Below, piece after piece: positions 4,111 to 32,390 of a stretch of DNA of 64,000 bases. A model generated the notes under the pieces. It was given only the letters and a program-made list of their open reading frames with translations. It did not search any database and was not told where the DNA came from. The translations under genes were made by a program, and so were the position numbers. Positions within the stretch are counted from its first letter, which is position 1, and each line of letters opens with the position of its first letter. The DNA is taken from the NCBI GenBank assembly GCA_003135415.1, contig PLBP01000013.1, positions 30,601 to 94,600 of the forward strand, read 5' to 3'. The DNA is from Hyphomicrobiales bacterium. Its GTDB lineage: Bacteria > Pseudomonadota > Alphaproteobacteria > Rhizobiales > Xanthobacteraceae.

Positions 4111-4147
4111 GCGGGCGTAGTTCAATGGTAGAACGGCAGCTTCCCAA
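4111..4147 (+). repeat. attL: displaced 5' half of tRNA-Gly(CCC) (acceptor 5' strand through the anticodon loop)
   Basis: gcgggcgtagttcaatggTagaacggcagcttcccaa is identical, apart from one D-loop base, to nt 1-37 of the intact tRNA at 32317. Similarity stops exactly after the anticodon loop and no 3' half follows. Confidence 0.85.
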
Positions 4148-4281: not shown

Positions 4282-4290
4282 CGTAGTTTG

Positions 4291-4313
4291 GGAGCCAAAT
4301 CGGAGCCAAAAAT
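4291..4313 (+). repeat. 23-bp direct repeat, copy 1 (ggagccaaatcggagccaaaaat); candidate integrase arm-type sites
   Basis: Exact 23-nt match to 32278-32300. It is internally a doublet of GGAGCCAAA. A third, inverted copy (ggagccgaaaa) lies at 4229-4239. It overlaps the integrase ATG (4312). Confidence 0.6.
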
Positions 4314-5469
4314 GCCAGTCGTGCATCTTACGGACGTTGTCGTGTCGCGACTCAAAGAGCCCGGCACATACTTTGACGAAACGACCCCCGCGTTCGGAAT
4401 TCGCGTGGGAAAAAATCGCAAGACATGGATCGTGATCAGAGGTCGCGAGCGCGTGCGCACGCGCATCGGCCGCTATCCGGCTGTTTCCCTCGCCAAAGCC
4501 CGCAAGCAGGCGCTCGTGCTTCTTGGTTCACCTGTCGAACCAAAGATCGAAGTTCCAAAATTCGACGATGCCGTGCAGCAGTTCTACGCCATCCACGTTT
4601 CAACGATGAAGTCGAAAACGCAGTATCAAATCAAACGTGTGATCAATCGCTACTTTGACAAGCCGCTACAGCACAAGCGCCTGGACGAAATTACCCATCA
4701 CGACATCACGAAGGTTACGGACGAGCTGGCAAAGCGCGTACCGGGCGAGGCCTTTCACGTCTTCAAGTACATTCGGATATTTCTGCGGTGGTGTGTCCCG
4801 CGATACATCAAGCACTCGCCGATGGAGGGTTTGAAGTCGCCTACTAAGTACATTCCCCGCAAGCGTGTCCTGGCGAAGGCCGAGATTGTCGCGGTATGGA
4901 AGGCGGCCGAGGAGGTTGGATACCCATTCGGTACTGCCATTCAACTTTCGCTTCTATGGGGAACGCGGTGGGGTGAAATGATCTCTTGTCGCCGCGCCTT
5001 CATCGATACAGAGGAGCGAACCATAACGCTGCCGGAAACCAAAAACGGCACGCAGCACTGCTTCCCCTATGGAAACCTTACGGCCAATCTTCTTGAAATT
5101 ATTCCGCGCTTCAACAGCACCGACCTGCTGTTTCCCGGCCGGGATATGGCGAGCCCGTGGAACGGCTCTGGGAAGGCAAAATGGGAGTTGAAGGAAATTT
5201 GCCAGGTTGCTCCCTGGCAGCTCTTGGACTTGCGGCGAACCTTCGCCACTAAGCTTGCGGAGCTGAAGGTGCCTCCTCACATTGTCGAGCGGTTGCTAAA
5301 CCACAAGCTCGGGACCTTGCAATCGGCTGGTGTGATTACGGCTGTCGCTGACGTATACAACCGCGCGCTCTACATGGATGAAATGCGCGAAGCCATCGAA
5401 AAATGGGAAAATTATCTCTCGGCGCTACTTAAAATGTCGCAGGGCGACAAGCTTCCTAATGCCGCCTGA
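4312..5469 (+). CDS. int: Tyrosine site-specific integrase
   Basis: The track ORF is 4288-5469; I prefer the ATG at 4312 (MPVVHLTDVV..). The catalytic signature is visible: ..WGTRWGEM.. (Arg), ..LDLRRTFATKL.. (Arg), ..LLNHKLG.. (His), ..VYNRALY.. (Tyr). It lies next to the att repeat. Confidence 0.9.
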   Translation: MPVVHLTDVVVSRLKEPGTYFDETTPAFGIRVGKNRKTWIVIRGRERVRTRIGRYPAVSLAKARKQALVLLGSPVEPKIEVPKFDDAVQQFYAIHVSTMKSKTQYQIKRVINRYFDKPLQHKRLDEITHHDITKVTDELAKRVPGEAFHVFKYIRIFLRWCVPRYIKHSPMEGLKSPTKYIPRKRVLAKAEIVAVWKAAEEVGYPFGTAIQLSLLWGTRWGEMISCRRAFIDTEERTITLPETKNGTQHCFPYGNLTANLLEIIPRFNSTDLLFPGRDMASPWNGSGKAKWELKEICQVAPWQLLDLRRTFATKLAELKVPPHIVERLLNHKLGTLQSAGVITAVADVYNRALYMDEMREAIEKWENYLSALLKMSQGDKLPNAA

Positions 5470-5968: not shown

Positions 5969-6430
5969 ATGCAACTGAAACTAAAGCGCTCGCAGCGCAT
6001 GGGCGGAATGATGGGAGGAAAGGTATTATTTGCGCTCGATGCGCGGGCCGACCTTTCTAAAGACGAGCAAACGCTGGTGAGCAAGTACGGCCTCGGAAAA
6101 ATCGTGGTGTACGACAGTGAGGCGCGCAAGAAACACGGCGAGGCCGCGTACGGCAATTTCGGCGATGCTGCAAGCACGCAAGGGCTTGGCATGTCTTCTG
6201 CTGGTAAGAGCTTGTGGAAGAACGCGCGCGGTATTGCGAGCGCCGCATTGATGGCGCTGTCCCTCCGTGTCACGGTCGACAGTCTAATGAGTGGCCAACA
6301 CATTGAGTGCAAAGACCTCGATGAGTTACTCGGTGCCGAGGCCGCGATCCTCGACGCCTGCAAGCACCTCAAAGCATATCTCGAAACATCACTGACCTTC
6401 GACGGCCGGGAGGAGGTCGTTGAGTTCTAA
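5969..6430 (+). CDS. Hypothetical protein (153 aa)
   Basis: Internal ATG of track ORF 5723-6430 (MQLKLKRSQRMGG..), preceded by a G-rich RBS. The upstream extension would run through the alpA terminator. The 3' end overlaps the next gene by 11 nt. Confidence 0.5.
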   Translation: MQLKLKRSQRMGGMMGGKVLFALDARADLSKDEQTLVSKYGLGKIVVYDSEARKKHGEAAYGNFGDAASTQGLGMSSAGKSLWKNARGIASAALMALSLRVTVDSLMSGQHIECKDLDELLGAEAAILDACKHLKAYLETSLTFDGREEVVEF

Positions 6431-10357: not shown

Positions 10358-11716
10358 CTAGGATGTCCCCGAAGTCCCCACATCCCCCGATGGAGCGGGT
10401 GAGGTAATGCCGGTGATGACGTAGACGCCGTAGCGAGCGCAGAGGCCCTCTATTTTGGCGCGTTCACTCACAGGGACAACGTAGATGCCATGACTTTTAT
10501 AGGTCCGCAGATTGAGGCGACGGCGGAGAACGCCCCCGATCCACCGGTTCGTGATAGGGCGCTCGTATTCAGCACCATAGCGCTCGATCAGGCCAACCGT
10601 CACGTCCGCTAACGGTACGAAAGCTCGTTCCGAAGTTAGCATCAGCTCGGCGAGGATTTCGAGAACCTGAGCCTCCACAAGGAGTCCGCGCTCGGCGACA
10701 AGCCCAGCCTGAATCTCGGACGCGATGGATCGCAAATCTCCGCGCAGTTTGGGGTCTCCGACGACGCTCAAGAGCGGCACCAAAATCTGATTGAGGCGCG
10801 GCTCAAGCGTGGGATCGATCAAGCTCTCATCCAGCTTCGTCTTGAACCTTCGGTGGAATCGATAGAGTAAAAGCTTATTACGCAGTTCGCGTGCTTCCTC
10901 TTTCATGGCGTCGGGGAGATTGATCGGGATGTCCGGGCGCAATTCACGTGGCCCCATTTCCTCGGTGATGAAACGACTCTCCAAGCCTTTGTCGTCGTAG
11001 CTGCTGCGAGTCGCTACAATCTTCGGGCCGAAGACCTGGAATGCCTGTGGGTTGAACTCACGTTGTCGGTTCATCATGGTGCGTAGAATTGGCATGCCGC
11101 GCACATTGCCGTTATTGAGAATCTTGACAATTTCCGCCTTCTCGTCGCTGAACCGGAAATCGGCCTCGTCCAATATAAGCGTCCCGCGAAAAGCATTGAG
11201 AGTATGGAAGATCGGCGAAACGGTGGAGGCGCCGCTGGCGAAGAATGCCTTGTAGCAGAGCGAACCGATCGTCAGCAGCGCGCGTGTCTTCCCGCTGCCG
11301 AAATCTCCGCGCAGGCGCAAATATGGAAGCTCATTGAACGCGTCATGGAGCCACGTGAGAAGAACATAGTGAGTCGCGATTTTCTCGAAGGTGGGGCTTA
11401 GATCGACGTAACGATGGATAAAATCCTGTATCTCGGCGACAAGCTTATCCTCGCTGCCGTAGATGTGTGGTTCTGAAGGCAATAGTATAGCTTCGTTGAG
11501 GATGAGGTTGTTGTCCGGTGAAAACGGGACAAGCGTTATTCCGCGACTCGTTGTGACGCGATCTTGAAGCGTCCAGCGCCCGGCGCTGAATACTGCGAAA
11601 AATGTACGCCGCCCGCCGGCATCGTACGCCAATTCGACGATCACACCGTCATCAAGGATCGCCGATGTTGTAGGGATGGCCGACTTTTTTTCAACCTCCT
11701 TCTCGTTTTCATTCAC
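10358..11716 (-). CDS. P-loop NTPase of unknown family (possible replication/helicase-like protein)
   Basis: 452 aa. Walker A RGDFGSGKTRAL, Walker B GTLILDEADF, then ..ILNNGN.. (possible sensor/motif C). The N-terminal ~130 aa are unassigned. Confidence 0.65.
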   Translation of the reverse strand: MNENEKEVEKKSAIPTTSAILDDGVIVELAYDAGGRRTFFAVFSAGRWTLQDRVTTSRGITLVPFSPDNNLILNEAILLPSEPHIYGSEDKLVAEIQDFIHRYVDLSPTFEKIATHYVLLTWLHDAFNELPYLRLRGDFGSGKTRALLTIGSLCYKAFFASGASTVSPIFHTLNAFRGTLILDEADFRFSDEKAEIVKILNNGNVRGMPILRTMMNRQREFNPQAFQVFGPKIVATRSSYDDKGLESRFITEEMGPRELRPDIPINLPDAMKEEARELRNKLLLYRFHRRFKTKLDESLIDPTLEPRLNQILVPLLSVVGDPKLRGDLRSIASEIQAGLVAERGLLVEAQVLEILAELMLTSERAFVPLADVTVGLIERYGAEYERPITNRWIGGVLRRRLNLRTYKSHGIYVVPVSERAKIEGLCARYGVYVITGITSPAPSGDVGTSGTS

Positions 11717-13664: not shown

Positions 13665-14066
13665 TCACCTGAACTTGCCGAGAATCCAGTTTACAAATGC
13701 GCGCCAGCCGGTCGGCTTTTGAGCACTGAAGTATTTTTTCTTTGCAATACGATCTAAAGCTCGTCCGTAATCGATTTCGGCTTGCGACATCCGGGCGGCC
13801 CATACGACTTTGCTGCGCTTTATCCAATAGTGCGACTGACAGGGAAAGCTCCAATTTCCGATTGAAGGATAGAGGGAGACCAATTCCCCATCGAAGCTTG
13901 CCTGCCAGTCGGTAGAACTAAGCGGTGTGACAACCTTACTTCCGCATCCACAGCAGCAATTATGTGCTGCTGTAGAAAACTCCGTCGAAATATAAATCTT
14001 CCCGTTCTCTAAAGTCGAAGGGATATACTGCACACGTTCACATTTGAGTGTTGCGACTCGTGTCAT
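13665..14066 (-). CDS. DUF6527-like Cys/His-rich protein of the Ubl-E1 cassette (role unassigned: E2-like, adaptor or peptidase)
   Basis: 133 aa. ..AAHNCCCGCGSKVVTPL..DW..FDGE.VSLYPSIGNWSFPCQSHYWI.. matches my memory of the DUF6527 signature. ATGA overlap with the E1 gene stop (14063-14066). Confidence 0.7.
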   Translation of the reverse strand: MTRVATLKCERVQYIPSTLENGKIYISTEFSTAAHNCCCGCGSKVVTPLSSTDWQASFDGELVSLYPSIGNWSFPCQSHYWIKRSKVVWAARMSQAEIDYGRALDRIAKKKYFSAQKPTGWRAFVNWILGKFR

Positions 14067-15259
14067 GACTTATCTTCGTTGAGAAGATGGTTTCCGTCGA
14101 TCGTATAGGCGCTAAAATGTTCGTGCTCTAGATCGGAATAGAAGCCGAAGAGTTTCTTCCATTTAACCACGGCGAGAGCGGCATTGAGCGCGTTGAGATC
14201 GGCGATCTGAATGTTCGTTGCGTATTCGTTTTTGGCGGCGGGATCAGAAAAAGGAATTCTATTGCTCAGGTGATCGTGCTTGGCCGGAGTGACGGTAGTA
14301 ACACGCAGTATGCCGCCAAGACTGTTATCCGCCCGTAGTTCCGCGCCCATTCCGACGTCAATGAATGGAATTTTGAGTTCCAGCAGCTTTTCAACGATGT
14401 GTCGTTTGTCCGCGCCCCTGTCGAGACAGAGGAACACGAAATCCATGCCCTTCAAAAGATCGAGATTCGAGGTCTCAAGGTAGCTTTCGACGGGCATAAT
14501 GTTCCGCCGCATTTTGGAGTACAGGTCTGCGAAATAGCGCACCTTGAAAGGAGGGGTGCGAATCTCGTTGCCTGAAGCCGCGCCCGGCGATCTAAACGCA
14601 TTGTGCTGAACAAACTTATCTCCGTCGAAAAGGTGTATCTCCTTTACGAGCGTCTTCGCCACAAGGTCGAGCACGTATGATCCGGTTCCGCCAAGGCCCA
14701 CGATAGCGATTTTGCTCAATGCCAGCTTCTCGCTGGCAGCGCCAATGCCGGCACGACTGGATGCCGTATCGAGATACAAGAAGACAGATTCTTCCTCTGA
14801 AGTTTCAATTAGAGGATGGGTACGCGCCGTTACATTGGGATCAATCACCCGGGCGTGGCCCTCCAATATCTCCACGTAGGCCGTCATCTTCTCGTGATAA
14901 TTTTTATACGCTCTCTGCTGACCATCGGCCGTGAGCTTGCGCGAGAAGGAGAAGTCGATCTTCAGACCTTGGCCTAAATCTTCTACCGCAGTGCTGTTAA
15001 CCAGCTCACCGAGCTTCGATCCATCACTCCGACAGGGGTGCGATCCGATGAATCGCACGGTGTGATCAGTAGGTACGATCGTTACATCATCGGCAAGCTC
15101 AAGCTTGGAGACCAACGTTCCCGTCTGAACAGTCTTAGCTTCGTCGACGTATGGAACGTCCCTAATAAGGAGATGGACGGACGGATGAATTTCTACCTTG
15201 TAACCTTCATCCCTCAGCTGTTTCAGATCGCCGCTACGACTTATCAGTCTGTGTGACAT
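14063..15259 (-). CDS. ThiF/E1-like adenylyltransferase with a ~175-aa N-terminal extension
   Basis: 398 aa. Rossmann motif IAIVGLGGTGSYVLD and the E1/ThiF nucleotide motif LFDGDKFVQHNAFR. The N-terminal domain (..EIHPSVHLLIRDVPYV..) is not a standard MoeB/ThiF feature. I see no CxxC zinc motifs. Confidence 0.85.
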   Translation of the reverse strand: MSHRLISRSGDLKQLRDEGYKVEIHPSVHLLIRDVPYVDEAKTVQTGTLVSKLELADDVTIVPTDHTVRFIGSHPCRSDGSKLGELVNSTAVEDLGQGLKIDFSFSRKLTADGQQRAYKNYHEKMTAYVEILEGHARVIDPNVTARTHPLIETSEEESVFLYLDTASSRAGIGAASEKLALSKIAIVGLGGTGSYVLDLVAKTLVKEIHLFDGDKFVQHNAFRSPGAASGNEIRTPPFKVRYFADLYSKMRRNIMPVESYLETSNLDLLKGMDFVFLCLDRGADKRHIVEKLLELKIPFIDVGMGAELRADNSLGGILRVTTVTPAKHDHLSNRIPFSDPAAKNEYATNIQIADLNALNAALAVVKWKKLFGFYSDLEHEHFSAYTIDGNHLLNEDKS

Positions 15260-15664: not shown

Positions 15665-16291
15665 CTATAGACCGAGGGCTTTCATCTTCGCGCGAATATG
15701 CGGAGAGCTTTTTGATTCTCTAGGAAATCCTCCTTTCTCATCGAAGAAGGTGATTTCTTTAGGCGGATGGTTAGCCTTTTTCGGAAACAAGGCTGCAATC
15801 TTTTCGATGTTCGTGTATGGCTCAACTTCCAACTTACTCCCTTCAATCGCTGGATTTTCTTTTATAAGTTCGCCTACTGCTCCGGCCGCTATTTGCCAAT
15901 ATGTGGTAACTGCTATTTCGTGTTCAACAACAGACCCCTCATGAAATTTTTCGAGATGCTCCAGTAATTCTTCCGTTGAGTTCCATAGAGTGTCCCACTT
16001 GAGCGATCCTTCCGAGTAATCAATTTTTGTCGATTCGTGCAGCATCAGGAAAAAAGCTATTTTTAAGAGAGGGAGACCTTTCTCAGCCTGCATAGCGAAT
16101 ACATCAAGCCAGTTTCCCTCAAGTTTCCCGTACAGATGGGGGTAGTCTTTGAATCTTTCTTTCCTTTCTTGTTCCCATTCAGCCTCTGACTTTTCGTTAG
16201 CTACTGCTTCTTTTTCTTCCTCTTTCTGGCGATAAATGCGCCAAAGAATGTAGGCAATTATCGCGAGAAGAATTACTACTATTATGCTCAT
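15665..16291 (-). CDS. Membrane-anchored protein of unknown function (N-terminal TM helix, charged coiled segment)
   Basis: 208 aa. MSIIVVILLAIIAYILWRIY, then QKEEEKEAVANEKSEAEWEQERKER. Low-GC codon usage like the Ubl cassette, 120 bp upstream on the same strand. Confidence 0.6.
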   Translation of the reverse strand: MSIIVVILLAIIAYILWRIYRQKEEEKEAVANEKSEAEWEQERKERFKDYPHLYGKLEGNWLDVFAMQAEKGLPLLKIAFFLMLHESTKIDYSEGSLKWDTLWNSTEELLEHLEKFHEGSVVEHEIAVTTYWQIAAGAVGELIKENPAIEGSKLEVEPYTNIEKIAALFPKKANHPPKEITFFDEKGGFPRESKSSPHIRAKMKALGL

Positions 16292-20087: not shown

Positions 20088-21230
20088 TCAGAAGACCTGA
20101 TTGAGCATCGCAGGAATTAGGCAACCAAGCTCGGTTGCCGCTCCGGCGCTGGAGGCGCGTGCGCGTTTTGCTTTGGCCTGCAATGCATCAAACCATTGTT
20201 GATCTTCAAGCGATGGCAGCGGAACTTCGAGCGCTTCAAGCGCTTGCACGCCGAGCGTCCGGTTGCGACCGGCTCCGCCCGGTGAAGCCTCGCCGAGGCG
20301 CTGTAGCCCCTCATTGGTGAGGAAGAAAAAGCGCAAAAACTCCGACGTGGCCAGCTTGGGCTCGGGCACACAGGTAAGAAATCGATGTGAACCTACGCGG
20401 CCATCATCTTCTTCCTTTGCGATGGCTACCGCACCTTCCCAAGCAAAGACGATATTGAATAAAAGATCGCCTTTCTCAATTCGGAACAGTCGCTTCGTGC
20501 CAACGTCCAACCCAGAAAGTTCTGGCTTATGGAATGTCCCTTTGCCGAATGAGCGTACCCCTAGTTCTGGATATCGGGCCTCAAGATCGATCTCGACTGC
20601 TCGTCTAACGAGCGGAGCCACAACGCTCATGCAGGCGCGGGGTGCTCCGGCGACGATCTTTTGAAATCCCTTTGTGAGTACTGCGACGAGCTCGGCCTCA
20701 ATGGCTATTCCTTTGCGATTCCGGGCTTCGATTCCTGCAGATGCCGCATCAAGGTTCTGTAGGATTCGGCGCTGATCTGGCACCGGAGGCAATGGAATTG
20801 TGTGATTTAAAAAACGATCTTCCCTCAAACGTACTCGGTTGGTCGAGCCTTCGCTTGAGACGCGACAAAGATCAACAAACCAATCTGTTTTGCTCAGCCA
20901 GCCCAGAAATTCCGGGAGTAAACGCTTTTCGTGCGCTTCAAAAACGGGAAAATCCTGAGAAACGACTCCTCCATCTAGGGTATCTGGCACAATGCCAAAT
21001 GCTCCGTGACGCGCATCGATCTTAGAAACGATAAATTGCCTAGCTCGGACTTTGATCTGACTGCTCGCAGCGATACCCGAACCCTTGACTATCCGTCGGA
21101 GTATAACGCCTGCACCCCACATTCTTACGGTGACTTGGCGATAGTCCGTATCGGGATCAAGATTGATCCAATCAGCTTTCTTTGTGAGAACATCGCCCAA
21201 TCGAACCTGCGGCCAACGCGCGGTGTTCAT
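20088..21230 (-). CDS. hsdS: Type I restriction-modification specificity subunit
   Basis: 380 aa with two target-recognition-domain halves (..VRLGDV.., ..SKIDARHGAFGIVP.., ..LFNIVFAWEGAVA..). 4-nt overlap with hsdM. Confidence 0.85.
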   Translation of the reverse strand: MNTARWPQVRLGDVLTKKADWINLDPDTDYRQVTVRMWGAGVILRRIVKGSGIAASSQIKVRARQFIVSKIDARHGAFGIVPDTLDGGVVSQDFPVFEAHEKRLLPEFLGWLSKTDWFVDLCRVSSEGSTNRVRLREDRFLNHTIPLPPVPDQRRILQNLDAASAGIEARNRKGIAIEAELVAVLTKGFQKIVAGAPRACMSVVAPLVRRAVEIDLEARYPELGVRSFGKGTFHKPELSGLDVGTKRLFRIEKGDLLFNIVFAWEGAVAIAKEEDDGRVGSHRFLTCVPEPKLATSEFLRFFFLTNEGLQRLGEASPGGAGRNRTLGVQALEALEVPLPSLEDQQWFDALQAKAKRARASSAGAATELGCLIPAMLNQVF

Positions 21231-22789
21231 ATGCGCCGCTCAATCACTAATTTAATTTCATTGAGGATCGCCAGGACCTCACGTTCCTTGGTGATCGCGC
21301 TCTCAATGATTTCTGTGGGCGGCCGATGATCAAACGCCTCTTTGGCATGAGGATTTTTCAAATCGAGATTTACGGACACACCAAGTCCGGCATCGTCGCG
21401 TTTGATTAGTTCGGAAGCTTTGGCCTTCCAAGCACGAGGCCCTTCTTTCCGGTCATTCCACCAAGCAAGGCACTCAGCAAATTCTTCGTACTGCAAAGCA
21501 TTTGTTTTCGAGTATTTGCGCTTGCCATTCGGTGCCGATTGTTCCCAATACCAAATTTCATCCGTTGGTCCCGACGTGTCGAAAAAGATCAAGTTAGTTG
21601 CAATATCCGTGTACGGAGAAAATACGCCTTCAGGCAGCCGAACCACGGTGTGAAGGTTGAATTGAGTGAGTAGGTCTGCCTTGATGCGCGCCGCAACCCC
21701 GTCACCGAACAAAATGCCGTGCGGCACGATCACACCGGCGCGGCCGTGTCCGGCGCGCTTCAGCCGCCGCATTATCAGTTGCAAAAATAAGAGCGCTGTC
21801 TCCGCAGTGCGTCGATCCTCAGGGAAATTAGTAAGAACACCCGTTTCTTCCTCACCGCCGAAGGGCGGATTGGTCAAGATAACCTCGACGCGGTCACGCT
21901 CACCGATCTCGGCGAGACGAAACCGGAGAGCATTGCCAGGATCGATCTGAGGGGATTCAAGCCCGTGAAAGAGCAGATTCATCTGTGCGAGCATGAACGG
22001 CAATGTCTTTGGCTCGCAGCCGCGCAGCGAGGACTTTTGAAGAACCTTCCGCTTTTGAACCGTGTCGGCTTGGCCGGCGAGATGGTTGTAGGCCTCGGCT
22101 AGAAAACCGCCTGTTCCACATGCTGGATCAAGAACGATTTCACCAAGCTTTGGATTTACTACCTCGACCATGAATCGAATGACCGGGCGCGGCGTGTAGA
22201 ACTCGCCACTATCGCCGGCCGCGTCGCGCATTTCGCGCAGAAGGCCTTCATAGAGACGGCTTAGTGTATGGATTTCTTCGGACGAATCGAAGTGGATAGC
22301 GTCGACGAGATTGATCACGTCGCGCAGAAGATATCCGCTTTCCATACGGTTTGAGAGACCCCGAAAAACGGTCGCGACCACATCGCGCCGATCGCGGCCT
22401 CCGTTCCGACCCCGCAGGCTCCGCAAGTACGCAAAGAGTCCAGGCCCTTTGCTCCCGTCAGGCCGGACCGCCTCATCAGCTATGATGAATTTGATAAGGT
22501 CCGGTCCGGTAATGCCATCATCCTGAGCAGCCCAATCGCGCCAGCGATAAGGTGGATCGATCGCCGATTCGAAATCCTTGTCGGCAAGGGTCGCCTCATC
22601 CTCCTGGAGCCGTTCCATGTCGTCCAAAAACTTTAGAAACATGATCCAGGTGAGCATTGGTAGGCGATCAAGGTCGCCGTTGAGCCCCTTATCTTTGCGC
22701 ATAATCTTTCGCGCCGACTTCACGATGCTGTCGAGGCGCTGAACCGTTGTTTTGGGGTCGTTATTCTTTTTTAGTCGGGCCATAGTCAT
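21227..22789 (-). CDS. hsdM: Type I restriction-modification N6-adenine DNA methyltransferase subunit
   Basis: 520 aa. HsdM N-terminal domain, SAM motif ..VLDPACGTGGFL.., catalytic ..LTNPPFGG... Confidence 0.9.
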   Translation of the reverse strand: MTMARLKKNNDPKTTVQRLDSIVKSARKIMRKDKGLNGDLDRLPMLTWIMFLKFLDDMERLQEDEATLADKDFESAIDPPYRWRDWAAQDDGITGPDLIKFIIADEAVRPDGSKGPGLFAYLRSLRGRNGGRDRRDVVATVFRGLSNRMESGYLLRDVINLVDAIHFDSSEEIHTLSRLYEGLLREMRDAAGDSGEFYTPRPVIRFMVEVVNPKLGEIVLDPACGTGGFLAEAYNHLAGQADTVQKRKVLQKSSLRGCEPKTLPFMLAQMNLLFHGLESPQIDPGNALRFRLAEIGERDRVEVILTNPPFGGEEETGVLTNFPEDRRTAETALLFLQLIMRRLKRAGHGRAGVIVPHGILFGDGVAARIKADLLTQFNLHTVVRLPEGVFSPYTDIATNLIFFDTSGPTDEIWYWEQSAPNGKRKYSKTNALQYEEFAECLAWWNDRKEGPRAWKAKASELIKRDDAGLGVSVNLDLKNPHAKEAFDHRPPTEIIESAITKEREVLAILNEIKLVIERRI

Positions 22790-22807
22790 TTTTCTTTTGG
22801 TTGAGGG

Positions 22808-25183
22808 TTAGGCCGCGTAGATCAATCCGGCCATGGCGTCGACCGCATGCCGCATTTTCTCAGGTCCGCCGAACCGGCGCGCTATCTCGCTTGGATTGCC
22901 AAGATCAGAGAGGGGCGGCACCTTAAGTATATCGGGTAGGACGAATTGCGCTGCGCCATGGGCAGCATATTTTTCGAGCAATGCTCCAAGAACAGCGCGG
23001 GCATCAGGGCCGTAGTGCTCGAAGAAGTCCTGCCGCTCGTGCCGAAGGCGCTGCGCCCGTTCGCGGCGCGTGCGCAGAGGAGCATTCCAAGCAAGGTGGC
23101 ATAGAAGATCGAAAGGATCATCGTCAGGGCGTCCTACGTCGGCGGCTAGGGTTTCAAGATCGATGCCGCGTTCGGCAAGCACCTCGACGACAGCTTTTCG
23201 CTTATCGGCAACGGCCCATTCCGCCAGAAGCTGCGCTGGGGAGGGATAGAGCGCCCTTACCTTTTCGCCAGTCCAATCGGTCAGAGCCTTACAGGTCAGT
23301 CGCTTGCCGTCAGTATCGAGCTCATAGACGAGGTGATGGATAACCTCGACGGTTCCACCGTCGACGTAGAACTTGTGGGATTCCTCTCCTTCTGTCTCGG
23401 GTGGCAGTCCTTCCGAAATATCTCCGGCGGGGCCTTCATCCGGGGATTCGGCCGGCGGCCGATCCTCGGTCTCCGTGGAAATGATTTCGCCGTCAGGCCC
23501 AATTTGCGTGACAGTCTCTGTCGTGGGCTCTCCATCAAATTCCGGATCGGCGAAATTAGCAGTAGCGGTGCCAGTATAGTCGATGATGTTGAAGAAGAGC
23601 TTGCCGTAATCTTCGCGCAATCGCGTACCGCGTCCGATAATCTGCTTAAACTCGCTCATCGATCCGACGACACGAGCAAGAACAATGTTTTGGCATGTCG
23701 GCGCGTCGACACCCGTGGTCAAGAGTTGCGAGGTTGTTAAGACAACCGGAGTTTTGGTTTCGACATCCTGAAATTTCGCCCGATGTGCTGCACCAATGTC
23801 GCCCTCGTCTGCGGTGACGCGGCAAACATAGTCTGGATACTTCACTACGAGGTCTGAATTGAAGTTGCCAAGCGCCAGACGCATTTCGCTCGCATGTTCC
23901 TGATTCACACAAAACACGATGGTTTTCGCAAAGCGATTGCTATTCTTCAAAAACTCAGAAAGGTGTCGGGCAATGGCCTCGGTGCGAGCACGAAGCGCGA
24001 CAACACGCTCAAAATCTTTGGTACCGTATTCTTCGTCAGGAATTTCTCGTCCATATCTATCGACTTCACCTTTACTCGGCCGCCAACCGGCGGCATCGTA
24101 GTCGGTGATCACACGATGGACCCGGTACGGAGCGAGAAAGCCATCCGCGATGCCTTGAGCGAGGCTGTACGTATAAAGCGGCGCGCCAAAGTAGGTATAT
24201 GTATCGCGGCTGTCCTCCCGCAAAGGCGTTGCGGTCATGCCGAGTTGGGAAGCCGAGCCAAAATACTCTAAAATGCGCCGCCAACTGCTTTCATCCCGCG
24301 CGCTACCTCGGTGACACTCGTCAATAATCACAAGGTCAAAAAAATCAGGCGCGAATTCGCGGAATAGTCCTTCCCTGTTGGTGTCTTCCGCGATGGCTTG
24401 ATAGATTGCGAAATAAATATCGCGCGCCTTGCTTACTCGTCCCTCTGTGATTTTAAAACGCGCATCGCCAAACGGCGCAAAATCTTTGGCCATTGGGTCG
24501 TCAACCAGAACGCTGCGATCGGCGAGGTAGAGAATTTTTGGCTTGCGGTGATCGCCACGCCGATTCCAACTGGCACTCCAAAGCTTCCAACAAATCTGGA
24601 ACGCGACCTGAGTCTTGCCCGCGCCAGTGCAGAGCGTGAGAAGTGTGCGCGGCTGCCCCGTGATTATCGCTTGAACGGCTCGGTTTACGGCTAGTTCTTG
24701 ATAGTAGCGTAAAGGCTTCCCGGGATCGGGGCGCCCAGGCGTGAGCATTCTTTCGGCGGCAACATCATCGGAAAGCCCCAGCCCTTCACGCTGGCGACGC
24801 CAAAGCTCGGCGGGTGTGGGGAAATCGGTTCGCTCAGTTTCTCGACCCATAAACAGGTCAATCTCTATAATCTTACGGCCATTGCTCGCGAAGGCGAATT
24901 TAAGTCCTAGGATCAGGGCATAGTCCTTCGCTTGCTGGACCCCATCGCTCGCTAGTTTGTAATAGGACTTGGCCTCCACAACAGCGAGCGGGTAGTCCGC
25001 ACTGTAGCGAAGGATGTAATCAGCGCGCTTCTGCTTGCCGCGCTTCGCACGGCCACCCACAAAGACGACGCGCCCATCGGTGAATGTGCGCTGTTCGTTG
25101 ATCATATGCGGCGAGCTTTCCCAGCCCGCTTTTTGAAGCAGGGGGACCACGAATTTTCGGCAGGTGTCGGCCTCGGTAAGCAT
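22808..25183 (-). CDS. hsdR: Type I restriction endonuclease R subunit
   Basis: 791 aa. N-terminal nuclease domain (MLTEADTCRKFVVPLL..ADYIL..VEAK), helicase motifs ..LCTGAGKT.. and ..IIDECHRGS... Confidence 0.9.
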   Translation of the reverse strand: MLTEADTCRKFVVPLLQKAGWESSPHMINEQRTFTDGRVVFVGGRAKRGKQKRADYILRYSADYPLAVVEAKSYYKLASDGVQQAKDYALILGLKFAFASNGRKIIEIDLFMGRETERTDFPTPAELWRRQREGLGLSDDVAAERMLTPGRPDPGKPLRYYQELAVNRAVQAIITGQPRTLLTLCTGAGKTQVAFQICWKLWSASWNRRGDHRKPKILYLADRSVLVDDPMAKDFAPFGDARFKITEGRVSKARDIYFAIYQAIAEDTNREGLFREFAPDFFDLVIIDECHRGSARDESSWRRILEYFGSASQLGMTATPLREDSRDTYTYFGAPLYTYSLAQGIADGFLAPYRVHRVITDYDAAGWRPSKGEVDRYGREIPDEEYGTKDFERVVALRARTEAIARHLSEFLKNSNRFAKTIVFCVNQEHASEMRLALGNFNSDLVVKYPDYVCRVTADEGDIGAAHRAKFQDVETKTPVVLTTSQLLTTGVDAPTCQNIVLARVVGSMSEFKQIIGRGTRLREDYGKLFFNIIDYTGTATANFADPEFDGEPTTETVTQIGPDGEIISTETEDRPPAESPDEGPAGDISEGLPPETEGEESHKFYVDGGTVEVIHHLVYELDTDGKRLTCKALTDWTGEKVRALYPSPAQLLAEWAVADKRKAVVEVLAERGIDLETLAADVGRPDDDPFDLLCHLAWNAPLRTRRERAQRLRHERQDFFEHYGPDARAVLGALLEKYAAHGAAQFVLPDILKVPPLSDLGNPSEIARRFGGPEKMRHAVDAMAGLIYAA

Positions 25184-25307: not shown

Positions 25308-27398
25308 ATGAAGGCCACGGAAGCCAAGCTTTTAGAGTTCCTCAAAAAGTCGCCGCAGTTTGTCATTCCTATTTACCAGCGAACCTATAGCTGGACCGAG
25401 CGCGAATGTCGCCAATTATGGGATGACATTTTGCGCACCGGACGCAACGACAAAATCTCAGCCCACTTTGTGGGTTCAATCGTCTATGTGGAAAAGGGCC
25501 TGTATCAGGTCTCTACGCAATCACCACTGCTGGTCATTGACGGTCAGCAGCGCCTCACCACCGCCACGTTGCTCATCGAGGCATTGGCCCGTGCTTTGGG
25601 TGAAAGCGAGCCGCTGGATGGATTTTCGGCAAAAAAGCTTCGCAACTATTACCTGCTCAACCCGCTGGAAGATGGAGATCGCCGGTACAAGCTGGTGCTC
25701 TCGCAGACCGACAAAGCATCACTTAAGGCCCTGTTGGACGATCAGCCAAAACCCAAAGAGCATTCTCTTCGCGTAGAAGAAAACTTCGCGTTATTTCAGG
25801 ATTGGGTAGGCGAAATCAAGGAGGGGCTAGAAGCGCTGTGCAAGGGACTGTCGAAGCTTGTGATCGTCGACATCTCGCTTAACCGCGAGCAGGATAACCC
25901 GCAGCTCATATTCGAAAGCCTCAATTCTACCGGTCGTGAACTGAGTCAGGCCGACCTGATTCGAAATTTCATTTTGATGGGATTGGAGCCGCAACTTCAA
26001 ACCCGACTTTACGAACAGTATTGGCGGCCGATGGAAGTTGATTTTGGTCAGGAAGCCTACGCCATTCACTTCGATGCGTTCATGCGCCATTACCTCACGG
26101 TGAAGACCGGCGAGATTCCTAACGTGAGGGAAGTGTATGAAGCGTTCAAGCAATATGCCCGCTCACCAAAAGCGGGCGACATGGAAGCGCTGGTCGCGGA
26201 TATCCGAATCTTCGCCGCTTACTTCTGCAAAATGGCACTGGGAGTTGAGCAGGATGCCAATCTCAAAGTGGCATTCCAAGACATCCGTGAGTTAAAAGTA
26301 GACGTTGCCTACCCGTTTCTGCTGGAGCTGTATCACGACTATGCAATAGGTGCGCTAGCCTCAGATGATTTGCTCCAGGCAGCACGGTTCGTGGAGAGTT
26401 ATGTATTCCGCCGAGCAGTATGCGGCATCCCAACAAACTCGATGAACAAGACATTCGCAACTTTTGGCCGGGGATTGAAAAAGAACCACTACCTCGAAAG
26501 TATTCTGGCACACTTCCTATTGTTGCCTTCCTACAGACGCTTTCCAAACGACGAGGAATTCAAGCGCGACCTTCAAACTAAGGACCTCTACAACTTCCGC
26601 AGCCGCAGTTATTGGCTGCGCCGGCTGGAAAACCATGGCCGGAAAGAGCGAGTACCGGTAGATGAATACACAATCGAGCACATCTTGCCGCAGAACGAGA
26701 ACCTTTCAGCTCCATGGCGTACCGAACTCGGCCCCGATTGGAAGCGCATCCAGCAAACGTATCTGCATACACTCGGTAATCTCACGCTGACTGGCTACAA
26801 CTCGGAATACAGCGATCGACCCTTCGCCGAGAAACGCAACATGGAAGGCGGCTTTGCCCAAAGTCCCCTGCGTTTAAACCAGGAATTAGGAGACCTTGAA
26901 CATTGGAACGAAGAGGCAATCATGCAGCGGGCGGTGAAGTTAGCCGGACAAGCAGCAAGCGTGTGGACGGCACCGAAGCTAGAGCCATCGGTGCTCGAAG
27001 CGTACAAGCCCACGGCTGGCACCGCTGGCCACACCATCGACGATCACCCGCATCTCGCACCCGGTCCGATCCGCGAGTTGTTCGAGGCATTCCGTAAACA
27101 GGTGATTTCGCTCGACCCGTGCGTGACCGAAGAGTTTCTTAGGCGTTATGTCGCGTATAAGGCGGAGACAAATTTTGTAGATGTAGTCCCGCAGGCGAAG
27201 CGGTTGCGTTTGTCGCTCAATGTTGCGTTCGGTGAGATCGACGATCCACGCGGGATTTGTAAGGATGTGTCGGGAGTTGGTCGCTGGGGAAACGGCGATG
27301 TAGAAGTCGGTCTTTCCGCCATCGAAGAACTGCCTTACGTCATGGGGTTGGTGCGGCAGTCGTTCGAACGGCAAATGGGTAATGGGAGCGATGTTTAG
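25308..27398 (+). CDS. GmrSD-like DUF262/DUF1524 protein (putative modification-dependent type IV restriction enzyme)
   Basis: 696 aa. DUF262 motifs ..IPIYQRTYSW.. and ..VIDGQQRLTT... His-Me finger-like ..YTIEHILPQN..LHTLGNLTL... An extra ~130-aa C-terminal domain. Confidence 0.85.
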   Translation: MKATEAKLLEFLKKSPQFVIPIYQRTYSWTERECRQLWDDILRTGRNDKISAHFVGSIVYVEKGLYQVSTQSPLLVIDGQQRLTTATLLIEALARALGESEPLDGFSAKKLRNYYLLNPLEDGDRRYKLVLSQTDKASLKALLDDQPKPKEHSLRVEENFALFQDWVGEIKEGLEALCKGLSKLVIVDISLNREQDNPQLIFESLNSTGRELSQADLIRNFILMGLEPQLQTRLYEQYWRPMEVDFGQEAYAIHFDAFMRHYLTVKTGEIPNVREVYEAFKQYARSPKAGDMEALVADIRIFAAYFCKMALGVEQDANLKVAFQDIRELKVDVAYPFLLELYHDYAIGALASDDLLQAARFVESYVFRRAVCGIPTNSMNKTFATFGRGLKKNHYLESILAHFLLLPSYRRFPNDEEFKRDLQTKDLYNFRSRSYWLRRLENHGRKERVPVDEYTIEHILPQNENLSAPWRTELGPDWKRIQQTYLHTLGNLTLTGYNSEYSDRPFAEKRNMEGGFAQSPLRLNQELGDLEHWNEEAIMQRAVKLAGQAASVWTAPKLEPSVLEAYKPTAGTAGHTIDDHPHLAPGPIRELFEAFRKQVISLDPCVTEEFLRRYVAYKAETNFVDVVPQAKRLRLSLNVAFGEIDDPRGICKDVSGVGRWGNGDVEVGLSAIEELPYVMGLVRQSFERQMGNGSDV

Positions 27399-27511
27399 CC
27401 AAGCTTTGTCCGCTGGCTGATAAACATTCGCGGATATTTCCGCCGGAAACTCACCCCGCTCAAAAATGACCGCCTATCTAGATAAACTCGCATTGCGTTA
27501 TACTGACCGTC

Positions 27512-29908
27512 ATGTTCGGCGATATAACAGTCAAGAGCAGGCCATTACGACTGGCGTTCTTTATTCCGCCGAACAAACTGGCGCTGCGCAAGGCCATTCA
27601 GGTCAATTCAACACTTTGGGGCGGCGTCTTTAATCCAATCATCCCGCTATTTAGCCGAGCGCCAAAAGCGTGGAAGGAATATTCTCATCAGAAGATTTCG
27701 ATAAGTGATCGCGTACTAGGTTATGTTCGGGCGTTCGACCCCGATATTTTAGTCAATTGCACAACCGAGCAGCTACCATCCTATCTTCGTGATCTTGGTA
27801 GGCTTACGATTTCAATCGATGACATATGGTCCGACTTTACTAATGAGAACGGAATTCCGAAATACGGTGTCGGCGTCTTTGAGCTCTTGAATGGAATCTA
27901 CAAAGAATTCTTTGAAGTTAAGCGACGCTTTCCCTCCAAAGTCTTGTTGCCGACCTTCCCAGAAGCGCATTCGCTGTTTTGGATGGCGGTTGTCGGCCAA
28001 CTTCCCCAGGCCATGCAGGATATCATCGAAAAAAATTATTCAGAAGCAATCGACATTGAGAAACCAGAAATGGGAGCCGCAAACTACGAGTCCATTATAC
28101 AATCGAGCTCTTTCTTCCCGCGCCGAATTACGCGCTATCGGTTGGAGAGCGAGAATGTCGGCCGCCGGCGTGACGATGCTTACGGCTTTTGTATGGACGC
28201 AAATAAATTTCCAGACATCGTCGATTTTTGGAACCTACGAGCTCTTGGCCGGTCAGTCATTCCCATTCCGAAGCAATTCGTCGATGTACCAGAATATCTG
28301 CTTTTCATTCGAAATTTTGTGAAGTCTCAGTACCGCGTAAGTCGACACAATCCGGCACTCACTTACGGCACGACCATTGTTCGAAGTTTTTCATCGAAAA
28401 TGTCGGAACTGGAAGCTCTCGCGAAGGCTTTGGATCTCGCAACGCTCATGCCTAACGATCCAAAAGCCAGATTGGTAAGCTTACAACATTGGTATCCGAG
28501 AATTTGGGACGAATGGGCGATGGGCAGAGACGGTGCCACGCCCGACAACGTATCTTCCGAGGCCGAAGAATTTTCCTTTCCGGATACCGATGGCTCAGTC
28601 ACGTTTAATCTCGTCAGACCAGACTTCGTTACCAAGACGTTCACTGATACACCGCGATATGCGAATGAGATATATCCAAAATTCTACGGGCAAACAGATA
28701 CAGTTCTCGCTGACGTGTTGCCATATGACCACGGCCAGGAGGTACTTCGAGTCGCCGGCGGCTCCATTGCTCTCCAAGATGAGTTTCGCATAGGCCATAC
28801 AGGTCTTATTCATCTCGTTAAATGGAAGCAGAAAGCCCGATGGAAAATTCCACTCGCTGAAGAAATATTTTTTGCGTGGCTGAGAGATAAGGGATTTGAA
28901 GCTAGTCTGTCGTCGTGTGGGCGCCTGGCTAAGCAGGTTCATTCACAACTGGAAGGCTGGACTATGGCTCTCACCCACGAGCCACTGCTTAAGTTATTTG
29001 AACGAATGAACAAGGGTGGCGAAGATGGAAAGGGAGCTCCGTTAGGTGCCGTTAAGAATTCGCTGAAGGGCGTCGACTCTGCAGGAAACCTCTACCTGTC
29101 CCTCGTAAAGCGAGACGTATTCCAGCTCGGCTACAAAACACAATGTATCCATTGTCAGCGTTCGTCTTGGCATAGCCTGGGCGATATGGCGAAAGAACTC
29201 GTTTGTCCGCTTTGTCACAAGAAATTGGACGCAATCAGTGCGGTAGATAGTGAAAATCAAGGAGCTTGGCACCTGAAAACGGCTGGGCCTTTTAGTGTTG
29301 GTAATTATGCGGAAGGAAGCTACTGCGTTCTCCTAGGCTTGAATTATTTTGAACGAGACCACTCTCTTCAAACCACGCCCGTTATGAGTTTCAAGGCTAA
29401 ACATAAAACCTCCGGGAAAGAGCTAGAGGCCGATTTCGGCCTTATGTGGCAGGAAACGGTCTACGGAGAGACGCAGGATGGTTTGTTGTTTGCAGAATGT
29501 AAGAGCTACAACAAGTTCGAACGGAAAGACTTCGATCGAATGCGGACTTTGGCTAAGCAGTTTCCGGGGGCGATATTAGCATTTTGCACACTTCGAAAGA
29601 CCTTAGAACCCGGAGAAATAAAAGAACTGAAATCAATTACCAAAGCGGGTATGAAGCGGTGGAAAACTGAAAGACCTATCAATCCGGTTCTCATTTTAAC
29701 GGGACAGGAATTATTTAGTCATATCGGTGCACCTTATTGCTGGGATGGAATATCGATTCCTGGATGGGCAAAGAATACACATACACTTCTGAATCTTTGC
29801 AACGCAACCCAGTCTATATATTTGAGCGTGCCACATTGGCAGGAAACCTGGGGAAAGGAATATGAAAAAAAGCAGAAAAAAACTAGAAGCGTCCCCGTCC
29901 TGAAATGA
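27512..29908 (+). CDS. Large orphan protein (798 aa): unknown N-terminal ~540 aa, CxxC-x16-CxxC zinc ribbon, C-terminal PD-(D/E)xK-like motif
   Basis: Long low-GC ORF with consistent coding character. CIHC...CPLC at nt 29144-29215. D641 (nt 29432) ... FAECK (E662-x-K664, nt 29495-29503). I cannot assign a named family. Confidence 0.7.
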   Translation: MFGDITVKSRPLRLAFFIPPNKLALRKAIQVNSTLWGGVFNPIIPLFSRAPKAWKEYSHQKISISDRVLGYVRAFDPDILVNCTTEQLPSYLRDLGRLTISIDDIWSDFTNENGIPKYGVGVFELLNGIYKEFFEVKRRFPSKVLLPTFPEAHSLFWMAVVGQLPQAMQDIIEKNYSEAIDIEKPEMGAANYESIIQSSSFFPRRITRYRLESENVGRRRDDAYGFCMDANKFPDIVDFWNLRALGRSVIPIPKQFVDVPEYLLFIRNFVKSQYRVSRHNPALTYGTTIVRSFSSKMSELEALAKALDLATLMPNDPKARLVSLQHWYPRIWDEWAMGRDGATPDNVSSEAEEFSFPDTDGSVTFNLVRPDFVTKTFTDTPRYANEIYPKFYGQTDTVLADVLPYDHGQEVLRVAGGSIALQDEFRIGHTGLIHLVKWKQKARWKIPLAEEIFFAWLRDKGFEASLSSCGRLAKQVHSQLEGWTMALTHEPLLKLFERMNKGGEDGKGAPLGAVKNSLKGVDSAGNLYLSLVKRDVFQLGYKTQCIHCQRSSWHSLGDMAKELVCPLCHKKLDAISAVDSENQGAWHLKTAGPFSVGNYAEGSYCVLLGLNYFERDHSLQTTPVMSFKAKHKTSGKELEADFGLMWQETVYGETQDGLLFAECKSYNKFERKDFDRMRTLAKQFPGAILAFCTLRKTLEPGEIKELKSITKAGMKRWKTERPINPVLILTGQELFSHIGAPYCWDGISIPGWAKNTHTLLNLCNATQSIYLSVPHWQETWGKEYEKKQKKTRSVPVLK

Positions 29909-29958: not shown

Positions 29959-30477
29959 ATGACCATCCTCATAGGATTGGCAGCGGTCATCGTTCTGGCG
30001 CTTATAATTCTGGGAATCTACGGGGCCGTGACTGCGCTTAATGGCACTCAAGAAGCTGAGAAAAGCAAGACGATCTATCAATACAGCTCCAAGAAATATT
30101 TTCTCACACGCGCCGAGCATGAGTTCTATAACGTGCTAGGACAAGCGGTAGGCAATGATTTCCGTATTTTTGCGCAAGTTCATCTTTCGTCGATTCTCGA
30201 CGAACGGATCAAGGGACAATCATGGACCGCTGCCCGCGCACATATAAACCGCAAGTCTGTTGATTATTTGTTGTGTGATAAGGAAAATATTTCACCGAAG
30301 CTCGCCATAGAACTGGACGATAAGACACACGAACGTCCCGATCGAATCGACCGAGACACAGAGGTAGAAAGAATTCTAAACCAAGCTGGTCTGCCTCTAT
30401 TGCGCATTGAGAACAATGTCGGCTTTGAACCGACGACCATAGCCTCTCAGATTAGGGCGGCACTGGAGAAGAAATAG
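29959..30477 (+). CDS. Membrane-anchored DUF2726-domain protein (nuclease-like fold)
   Basis: 172 aa. TM helix MTILIGLAAVIVLALIILGIYGAV, then ..LTRAEHEFYNVL..RIFAQV..VDYLLCDKENISPKLAIELDDKTH..RDTEVERIL..AGLPLLRI, typical of DUF2726. Confidence 0.75.
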   Translation: MTILIGLAAVIVLALIILGIYGAVTALNGTQEAEKSKTIYQYSSKKYFLTRAEHEFYNVLGQAVGNDFRIFAQVHLSSILDERIKGQSWTAARAHINRKSVDYLLCDKENISPKLAIELDDKTHERPDRIDRDTEVERILNQAGLPLLRIENNVGFEPTTIASQIRAALEKK

Positions 30478-30653
30478 GGTCGGACGCGCCCGTGAGGGGT
30501 GAACTCCAAACTCACTCGTAACGGCCGGCCACTCTGCGGCTTCCCCATGCAACAAAAGTTGATCTGCGCCGCATAGCGGAATATTCGCGCCCGAGCGTGC
30601 ACGCGGTGGAACATACCGCACGGTTACGGCGAACGCTTTTGCTTCTACTTCCC

Positions 30654-30675
30654 GTGTCCTCTTCGATGAGGACAC
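30654..30675 (+). promoter_or_regulatory. Perfect 8-bp hairpin/palindrome covering the Shine-Dalgarno of the MT-A70 gene
   Basis: GTGTCCTC-ttcgat-GAGGACAC. The 3' arm contains GAGGA 9 nt upstream of ATG 30681. Could be a translational hairpin or an operator. Confidence 0.35.
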
Positions 30676-30680
30676 TACGG

Positions 30681-31238
30681 ATGAAATTGCATAAGCGTTC
30701 AAAATATCGAGTTATCTATGCAGACCCGCCCTGGCCCGAGTACGGCGGAGGCAAGATTAAGCGTGGTGCCGACCGGCACTACCCTCTTATGCCAATCGCG
30801 GCGATTCTTCGGCTTGGCGATACCTTGCAGCGGCATATCGACGAAGATGGATGCCACCTCTACCTGTGGGTGACGAACACGCACTTGGCCAACGGACTGC
30901 TCGTCATGGACGGGTGGGGATTTCGGTACAAAACGACGATCACCTGGTTCAAGGATCGCTTCGGCCTAGGGCAGTATTACAGAGGCCAAACCGAACATTG
31001 CCTCTTTGGAGTGCGTGGCCGGCTGCCCTATCGCACCACGGACGACGGTAAGCGCTCTCAGGGCATCACCGCTATTCATGCTCCCCGCACGACCCATTCC
31101 GCGAAGCCCGACGAGATGCGGCGCATGATCGAGCGGGTTAGTTATGCGCCACGGTTGGAGCTATTCGCACGCCGCGAAGCCGAGGGCTGGGATGTTTGGG
31201 GCAATGAGGTCCGAAGCGATGTCCTGATTGCCGCCTAG
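30681..31238 (+). CDS. MT-A70-family (beta-class) DNA N6-adenine methyltransferase
   Basis: Track ORF 30597-31238; I prefer ATG 30681 (MKLHKRSKYRVIYADPPW..). Catalytic DPPW, ..HLYLWVTN.., ..HSAKPDEM.., ..ELFARR...GWDVWGNEV. Confidence 0.85.
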   Translation: MKLHKRSKYRVIYADPPWPEYGGGKIKRGADRHYPLMPIAAILRLGDTLQRHIDEDGCHLYLWVTNTHLANGLLVMDGWGFRYKTTITWFKDRFGLGQYYRGQTEHCLFGVRGRLPYRTTDDGKRSQGITAIHAPRTTHSAKPDEMRRMIERVSYAPRLELFARREAEGWDVWGNEVRSDVLIAA

Positions 31239-32277: not shown

Positions 32278-32300
32278 GGAGCCAAATCGGAGCCAAAAAT
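32278..32300 (+). repeat. 23-bp direct repeat, copy 2 (ggagccaaatcggagccaaaaat), 16 nt upstream of the intact tRNA-Gly
   Basis: Exact match to 4291-4313. Confidence 0.6.
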
Positions 32301-32316: not shown

Positions 32317-32390
32317 GCGGGCGTAGTTCAATGGCAGAACGGCAGCTTCCCAAGCTGCATACGAGGGTTCGATTCCCTTCGCCCGCTCCA
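32317..32390 (+). tRNA. tRNA-Gly (anticodon CCC), intact, CCA encoded; attR overlaps nt 1-37
   Basis: Hand-folded cloverleaf: acceptor GCGGGCG/CGCCCGC, D stem GTTC/GAAC, anticodon stem GCAGC/GCTGC with loop TTCCCAA, T stem GAGGG/CCCTT with TTCGATT loop, then TCCA. Confidence 0.95.

Follow-up and report, generated by a model that had tools for sequence, protein, structure and literature searches.

We analysed a 64,000-nt stretch of Hyphomicrobiales bacterium DNA (Xanthobacteraceae; GCA_003135415.1, contig PLBP01000013.1, positions 30,601 to 94,600 of the forward strand), hereafter the window, with a focus on a gene that an initial annotation had described as encoding an orphan protein and candidate single-gene defence nuclease. 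The open reading frame (ORF) list and translation place this gene on the forward strand from an ATG at 27512 to a stop codon at 29906-29908, encoding 798 aa. Its coordinates, strand and length, as well as the 113 bp that separate its start from the end of the upstream GmrSD gene (27398), were as originally claimed. The gene rides a ~28-kb low-GC element, where it is placed between GmrSD and a DUF2726 gene, with an MT-A70 methyltransferase gene further downstream; Pfam confirmed the identities first given to all three flanking genes. The low GC content of the ORF was likewise borne out, its value of 0.475 being the lowest among local genes, compared with 0.531 across the island and 0.633 in the flanks. 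Public assemblies also contain an identical protein (P0001).

Sequence searches placed the protein in a real, large and unannotated family of ~800-aa proteins, so the description as an orphan was not upheld. A word-indexed search returned 293 matches, the top 120 of which were almost all ~800 aa in length with 39-72 % identity and 98-100 % query coverage. An exhaustive profile search of 1.84 billion representatives identified 3,559 matches at E≤1e-3, counted as cluster representatives, of near-uniform length (~800 aa) and with full-length coverage, and a stricter cut-off left 2,096 of them (E≤1e-10) or 922 (E≤1e-30). In GTDB contigs, with one genome per species, 153 stretches encoded a relative among ~185,000 species genomes, a patchy distribution. 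The closest such relative was found in Bradyrhizobium (64 % identity), whilst others belonged to Beta- and Gammaproteobacteria, Acidobacteriota, Patescibacteria/CPR, Poribacteria, Nitrospirales, Verrucomicrobiota, Bacteroidota, Chloroflexota and Planctomycetota. A full-length homologue was also present on a 5.8 kb contig of a Methanosarcinales metagenome-assembled genome (L009; match 2924-5332, 41 % identity), indicating either cross-domain transfer or a binning artefact. Only one of 72,556 plasmids carried a relative, and there were none in IMG/VR or among the INPHARED phages; a viral origin of the gene was rejected accordingly. Public sources name all family members 'hypothetical protein'. 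When the full protein was compared with Pfam, NCBIfam, PADLOC and PHROGs, a sub-threshold Zn_ribbon_6 was the only match, and no PADLOC-DB v2.0.0 family (HEC and PDC candidates included) matched at E≤0.1. Querying PDB sequences with the protein, with its family profile and with profiles of three domains returned noise only (E≥0.26).

Structure models were generated with AlphaFold2 for the full-length protein using the family alignment (mean predicted local distance difference test score, pLDDT, 88.4; predicted template modelling score, pTM, 0.85) and for aa 343-798 (pLDDT 89.7, pTM 0.88). Within the C-terminal third, the models displayed the alpha-beta-beta-beta-alpha-beta topology canonical for PD-(D/E)xK nucleases (alpha 600-614, beta 619-631, beta 637-650, beta 653-664, alpha 671-683, beta 688-693), in which D641 opens strand 2 and E662-x-K664 closes strand 3. 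Conservation was assessed in 44 diverse homologues and then, with the same outcome, in 75 sequences down to ~27 % identity. In the latter set E639, D641 and E662 were invariant and K664 was present in 74 sequences, whilst the spacing between D641 and E662 was X20 in 65 sequences and X19-21 in the remainder, giving the family signature D-X20-E-(C/S/A)-K. Foldseek returned no match for the full model at E≤1e-3 against PDB and BFVD. For aa 343-798 against PDB, nine of the top 11 matches were PD-(D/E)xK nucleases, led by MspJI (probability up to 0.97, 3.2 Å over 100 columns) and AspBHI (probability 0.84, 3.5 Å over 100 columns), which also gave the tightest superpositions. Further matches comprised BsaWI, Card1 (probability 0.63), SfsA and BbvCI, with PaqCI and HamA (probability 0.18) ranking lower. 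Curated models of the Mrr_cat, PDDEXK_x and RE_* types did not match the C-terminal domain significantly. Prediction of a PD-(D/E)xK domain thus has good support at the level of fold and motif, resting on topology, motifs and the consistency among weak matches, though the family is divergent in sequence. The initial annotation had read such a domain from the D641...E662-C-K664 pattern and had staked that call beforehand on structure prediction and residue conservation; a nuclease fold was seen and the catalytic residues were conserved. The helix-rich tail it described after the motif was also evident in the model, with conserved W744 and T766-Q767, and a role for this tail in oligomerisation would be a guess.

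The putative zinc ribbon that precedes the nuclease core, first noted at nt 29144-29215, was exact: CIHC (nt 29144-29155) and CPLC (nt 29204-29215) form CxxC-X16-CxxC, and C545, C548, C565, C568 and the X16 spacing were invariant in 75/75 sequences. The AlphaFold2 model places the CxxC knuckles on beta-hairpins, and sub-threshold Zn_ribbon Pfam matches recurred in up to 24 of 74 C-domain members. With two knuckles, hairpins and constant spacing, the segment has the features of a C4 zinc ribbon that is predicted to bind metal.

Upstream of the ribbon, aa 1-536 had no recognisable relative in Pfam, NCBIfam, PADLOC, PHROGs or PDB sequences, and Pfam scans of the N-terminal and middle parts of 74-75 individual homologues gave noise, in agreement with the original remark that the first ~540 residues match nothing known. 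The model divides this region into a bilobed alpha/beta module, a beta-rich domain and a helical domain (Table 1). Invariant or near-invariant positions in the N-region comprise W36-G37-G38, P42, D76-P77-D78, D235, D238, W240-N241-L242-R243, P329 and W332, a pattern more in keeping with a functional site than with a passive scaffold. Fold matches to the N-region were of low probability and included transcarbamylases, GT-B glycosyltransferases, glutamate racemase and BRCT repeats, whilst the CWB2 repeats of Cwp6 matched with a probability of 0.84 and a TM-score of ~0.2. None of these Rossmann, GT-B, transcarbamylase, BRCT or CWB2-like identities was taken as an assignment. The beta-rich domain had no fold or profile match, and its pLDDT fell to 65-86 when the N-module was left out of the model. 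The helical domain (helices 449-459, 468-479, 484-501 and 511-533) contains a helix-turn-helix (HTH)-like segment, LSxxGxLAKQ, around the invariant S467 and G470; no Pfam HTH family was significant in the per-member scan of this domain, for which we infer a DNA-binding role. No internal duplication or inter-domain homology was found with hhalign (probabilities ≤2 %). No Walker A or other NTPase motif was present in the protein, suggesting that the enzyme is not NTP-driven, unlike GmrSD, McrBC and type I enzymes.

Table 1. Domains of the 798-aa protein and features of the element that carries its gene
Feature	Position (nt)	Strand	Basis
Complete gene, 798 aa plus stop	27512..29908	+	ORF list, translation, profile matches
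N-terminal alpha/beta module, aa 1-342, two Rossmann-like lobes	27512..28537	+	AlphaFold2, pLDDT mostly >85
Beta-rich domain, aa 343-447	28538..28852	+	AlphaFold2 strands at 346-445
Helical domain, aa 448-536, HTH-like signature	28853..29119	+	AlphaFold2 helices, invariant S467/G470
Predicted C4 zinc ribbon, aa 537-591	29120..29284	+	Invariant Cys, hairpins in model, weak Zn_ribbon Pfam matches
Predicted PD-(D/E)xK core, aa 592-735	29285..29716	+	AlphaFold2 topology, Foldseek PDB matches
Putative catalytic residues E639, D641...E662-C-K664	29426..29503	+	Conservation in 75 sequences
Helical tail, aa 736-798	29717..29905	+	AlphaFold2 helices 751-755, 759-771, 776-793
Partial tRNA-Gly(ccc) copy	4111..4147
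Tyrosine integrase	4288..5469
23-nt direct repeat, left copy	4291..4313
Type I restriction-modification operon hsdS-hsdM-hsdR, EcoAI type	20088..25183	-	Pfam, PADLOC, NCBIfam
GmrSD-type type IV restriction gene with C-terminal DUF5655	25308..27398	+	Pfam (GmrSD_N, GmrSD_C), PADLOC
DUF2726 gene	29959..30477	+	Pfam
MT-A70 methyltransferase gene	30597..31238	+	Pfam
23-nt direct repeat, right copy	32278..32300
Intact tRNA-Gly	32317..32390

Comparison with characterized systems drew the closest parallels to MspJI and AspBHI, Mrr-like modification-dependent restriction endonucleases of type IIM/IV, which share with the 798-aa protein an N-terminal recognition region followed by a C-terminal PD-(D/E)xK cleavage domain, and the absence of an NTPase and of a cognate methyltransferase. 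The D-X20-(E/Q)-x-K spacing is also identical, the catalytic motif being DX20QAK in MspJI (PMC3479186) and DX20EAK in AspBHI (PMC3946040). In contrast to these enzymes, the 798-aa protein is about twice as long, has a ~540-aa module instead of a detected SRA-like domain that flips 5-methylcytosine, and displays no similarity to them at the sequence level (no Mrr_cat, no PDB sequence match; fold E-values 0.01-0.05); the C4 zinc ribbon is absent from MspJI. We placed the family outside the MspJI family because of the missing SRA domain and the lack of sequence similarity. Card1/Can2 and HamA (Hachiman), defence effectors gated by a ligand or a partner, similarly combine a sensor region with a PD-(D/E)xK nuclease, but here there was no CARF domain, no CRISPR or helicase partner and no conserved neighbour, and TM-scores were 0.2-0.3. 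The type IV proteins TgvAB, BrxU and GmrSD are unrelated to the 798-aa protein. GmrSD, encoded next to it in the window, pairs DUF262 (a ParB-like NTPase) with the HNH-type DUF1524, whereas the 798-aa protein is of the predicted PD-(D/E)xK type and has no NTPase.

The genomic neighbourhoods of homologues were examined in 78-80 other genomes or loci, with all-versus-all BLAST of the four genes on either side. No partner gene was conserved in 78 loci, the best neighbour cluster being present in 11, and no small antitoxin-like or partner ORF was conserved within 900 nt of homologues, consistent with the single-gene status originally proposed. No methyltransferase family was consistently adjacent in the 78-80 loci. 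MT-A70 and DUF2726 homologues were found within 8 kb at 0/80 loci each and a GmrSD-like gene near the homologue at 1/80, so a functional link to these local neighbours, which the initial annotation had entertained, was not reproduced. The genes that did recur within four positions included N6-methyltransferases of restriction-modification (RM) systems (type I, IIG or ISP; 11 loci), HsdS (6 loci), HsdR (3+3), serine recombinase (6), Fic (3) and rve transposase (3). Amongst the 150 immediate neighbours, Pfam identified type I RM, AAA_15/AAA_21, Schlafen-AlbA_2, FRG, Fic, Tsp45I, type ISP and integrase genes. A defence or mobile-element context recurs among homologue loci. Type I RM genes lay within 8 kb of the homologue at 9/80 loci; for a random gene, a rough estimate of such proximity is well under 1 %.

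In seven independent loci the gene was co-directional with, and inside or appended to, a type I RM operon. With X denoting the homologue, the arrangements were hsdR-hsdS-X (L050 and L055), hsdS-X-hsdM (L067), hsdR-...-hsdS-X-hsdM (L068), X after hsdR (L060 and L012) and hsdM-rhuM-...-hsdS-...-X-hsdR (L083), and ORF overlaps of 1-4 nt were seen in L050, L067 and L068. A position between hsd genes in several genomes, without a methyltransferase of its own, is reminiscent of TgvAB, BrxU and GmrSD, and the type IV system tgvAB sits within a type I RM operon on V. cholerae VPI-2 (PMC11411939). A subset of loci also resembled PrrC and RloC in this placement. PrrC is an ATPase-like anticodon RNase, from which the 798-aa protein differs by its DNA-nuclease-type fold and by having no NTPase motif.

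Several single loci displayed other contexts. In L088 (1-10349) a same-strand cluster comprised a SNF2 helicase, two N6-methyltransferases, DpnI-like, PDDEXK_1 and Trypsin_2 genes and then the homologue, which begins 21 nt after the Trypsin_2 protease gene; this cluster may be a composite defence operon. In L086 (4224-16890) the homologue was carried, together with a Gasdermin_protease gene, by an integrative and conjugative element that shares the TrwB-type, Replic_Relax and integrase backbone of the window island, which suggests that a family of mobile genetic elements common to both shuttles defence cargo. One homologue adjoined an Mrr_cat gene and another was on an ArdC element. The only plasmid homologue (L090, 7389-11397; WP_341509620.1, 'hypothetical protein'; 27 % identity) was found on Photobacterium damselae plasmid pWMD-P3-2, where it adjoins a gene of DUF4238, a reported defence-gene family, and lies 7-9 kb downstream of PAAR protein and H-NS genes.

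Within the window, the left boundary of the element that carries the gene is marked by a tyrosine integrase and a partial tRNA-Gly(ccc) copy, which consists of the 5' half in two 18-nt exact blocks, whilst the intact tRNA-Gly lies at the right end. A 23-nt direct repeat, GGAGCCAAATCGGAGCCAAAAAT, is present at both ends. The backbone includes a serine recombinase, a UvrD-like helicase, a TrwB-type coupling protein and a Replic_Relax protein, and the ~28-kb unit has the appearance of an integrative mobilisable element whose insertion site was tRNA-Gly, with the unusual feature that it lies 5' of the intact gene. Its defence cargo comprises an EcoAI-type type I RM operon, the GmrSD-DUF5655 gene, the 798-aa gene, DUF2726 and MT-A70. 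The GmrSD gene encodes DUF5655 at aa 585-687 and was matched by the PADLOC models Orf5, HEC-06 and PDC-S18, and is a fusion of two candidate defence modules. The island also carries a DUF6791 and ThiF (E1-like) protein gene (14063-15259, reverse strand), adjoining a 208-aa ORF (15665-16291), and perhaps belonging to a module for ubiquitin-like conjugation or for defence, along with three ORFs that had no Pfam match at E≤1e-3 (5723-6430, 235 aa; 6420-8525, 701 aa; 10358-11716, 452 aa). Outside the element, a second dip in GC content (55001-57000; 0.54-0.59 against ~0.64) beside a tRNA-Thr (56883-56957, reverse strand) may be another small insertion.

The TATACT first noted as a -10-like element upstream of the 798-aa gene was present at 27499-27504, 7 nt before the ATG, without a -35 partner. 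A promoter scan identified no forward-strand site, and its regional total of seven sites was at the expectation from shuffled sequence (6.3); the presence of the hexamer was confirmed, whilst its role as a promoter was unsupported. No Shine-Dalgarno sequence was evident in 27499-27511. If TATACT were a true -10 element, for which there was no statistical support, the mRNA would be leaderless.

Taken together, the observations of the initial annotation were confirmed and its interpretation was supported in part: the nuclease-like fold, the ribbon and the single-gene organization stood, whilst the orphan status, the promoter and the link to MT-A70 or DUF2726 did not. The 798-aa protein is very probably an active PD-(D/E)xK nuclease, as predicted from its motifs and modelled fold, with DNA as the presumed substrate. 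We lean towards reading it as a DNA endonuclease that works on its own, needs no NTP and travels in defence islands and on mobile elements. A role in defence or against mobile genetic elements appears likely, whereas modification dependence of the type IV kind is a tentative suggestion. In such an enzyme the C-terminal third would be an Mrr/MspJI-like PD-(D/E)xK domain that cuts DNA, with D641, E662, K664 and probably E639 binding Mg2+, and the C4 zinc ribbon and HTH-like helical domain would both probably hold DNA. The conserved first ~450 residues, comprising the two alpha/beta lobes and the beta-rich domain, would act as a recognition or gating module, the likeliest target of which would be some mark of foreign DNA, for instance a modified base. 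Since the family comes with neither a cognate methyltransferase nor a partner gene, the sparing of self DNA would depend on what the N-module recognizes. The lack of a protecting methyltransferase implies that the enzyme either cuts only DNA with a foreign feature, in the manner of type IV systems, or stays inactive until triggered, as in abortive or guard systems. We favour the type IV-like mode, still at less than even odds, because the closest catalytic domains belong to modification-dependent enzymes, because the immediate precedent in type I RM operons, TgvAB, is type IV, and because a recognition region joined to a cleavage domain is the architecture of that class.

A number of results weigh against this reading. 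All Foldseek matches in PDB were weak (E≥0.01), and none of the 74 C-domains scanned matched a nuclease model of Pfam or NCBIfam at E≤1. No SRA, PUA/EVE or YTH-like reader was identified by Pfam or by fold search of either model, and low-confidence matches indicate that the bilobed N-module resembles small-molecule-binding architecture more than known DNA readers. With regard to context, neighbour counts were raw, without a genome-wide background or defence score. About 80 % of loci had no RM gene within four genes, most had no identified defence neighbour, and one homologue (L085) occupied an apparently neutral chromosomal site.

The triggered alternative, in which a phage protein, a small molecule or the loss of a neighbouring RM system to an anti-restriction protein is sensed by the N-module, which then releases non-specific nuclease activity that leads to cell death or arrest, would follow the logic of Card1 or of PrrC, which is embedded in the EcoprrI type I RM operon. 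We regard such an abortive-infection or guard effector as rather unlikely, even with several features in its favour. The seven loci where the gene lies within or is attached to a type I RM operon, in some cases with translational coupling, would suit a guard, as would a sensor region of ~540 aa that is very large, highly conserved and devoid of a DNA-reader signature; the low-confidence likeness to bilobed ligand-binding architectures and the presence of Card1 among the fold matches point the same way. However, type I RM genes were near just nine of 80 homologues, so that acting as a dedicated guard of RM cannot be how the family works in general. Nor was there a conserved partner gene that might generate a signal, and neither CARF, SAVED nor any other known sensor domain was detected in the protein.

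It is improbable that the protein is instead a nuclease of mobile-element or DNA metabolism without a defence role, serving maintenance, exclusion of competitors, recombination or repair and present in islands because it travels with mobile elements. The recurrence nearby of serine recombinases, transposases, integrases, TrwB-type coupling proteins and Replic_Relax genes, and a patchy distribution resembling that of horizontally transferred genes, accord with this explanation. Nonetheless, the gene is tied to no single element type or recombinase, is frequently located in RM operons rather than transfer modules, and was encountered on a single plasmid and in no phages. The remaining alternative, a classical type II-like RM pair in which the gene supplies the restriction subunit and MT-A70 the methyltransferase, draws on the position of MT-A70 two genes downstream on the same strand and on a PD-(D/E)xK fold typical of type II restriction endonucleases. 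It is largely refuted by the missing co-occurrence of MT-A70 in the other 80 genomes, which likewise displayed no consistently adjacent methyltransferase, and the DUF2726 gene intervenes between the two; we regard this pairing as highly improbable.

A further reading, which we consider unlikely, is that the N-terminal ~540 aa are a new sensing module gating an MspJI-like nuclease and that the recurrent translational coupling within type I RM operons reflects a functional partnership. In one version the nuclease would act as a reserve, set off by DNA or phages able to evade or block type I restriction; in another it would recognize a class of DNA hypermodification outside the scope of known type IV readers. 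If true, this would represent a single-gene immunity family of wide occurrence (>3,500 sequence clusters across many bacterial phyla) that relies on a new principle of recognition.

As a stand-alone endonuclease of the kind favoured above, the candidate is solid, widely distributed and experimentally tractable, and not surprising in kind. Its general kind, a candidate defence-island nuclease that lacks a methylase, is known, whilst the large recognition module and the arrangement of a zinc ribbon with a predicted nuclease domain are rated as new. The main upside lies in the N-module and in the relation to type I RM operons, where recurrent insertion of the gene would offer a testable case of layered restriction, whereby an RM system is combined with an embedded nuclease that has no methyltransferase. 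The MspJI, AbaSI and PvuRts1I families are already useful for epigenetic mapping, and a modification-dependent enzyme with a new reader, if that is what the protein proves to be, might become another such tool. If the favoured reading is confirmed, a large, phylogenetically broad and unannotated family would join the single-gene nucleases that act against phages or plasmids, and a ~540-residue recognition module of a new type would be gained.

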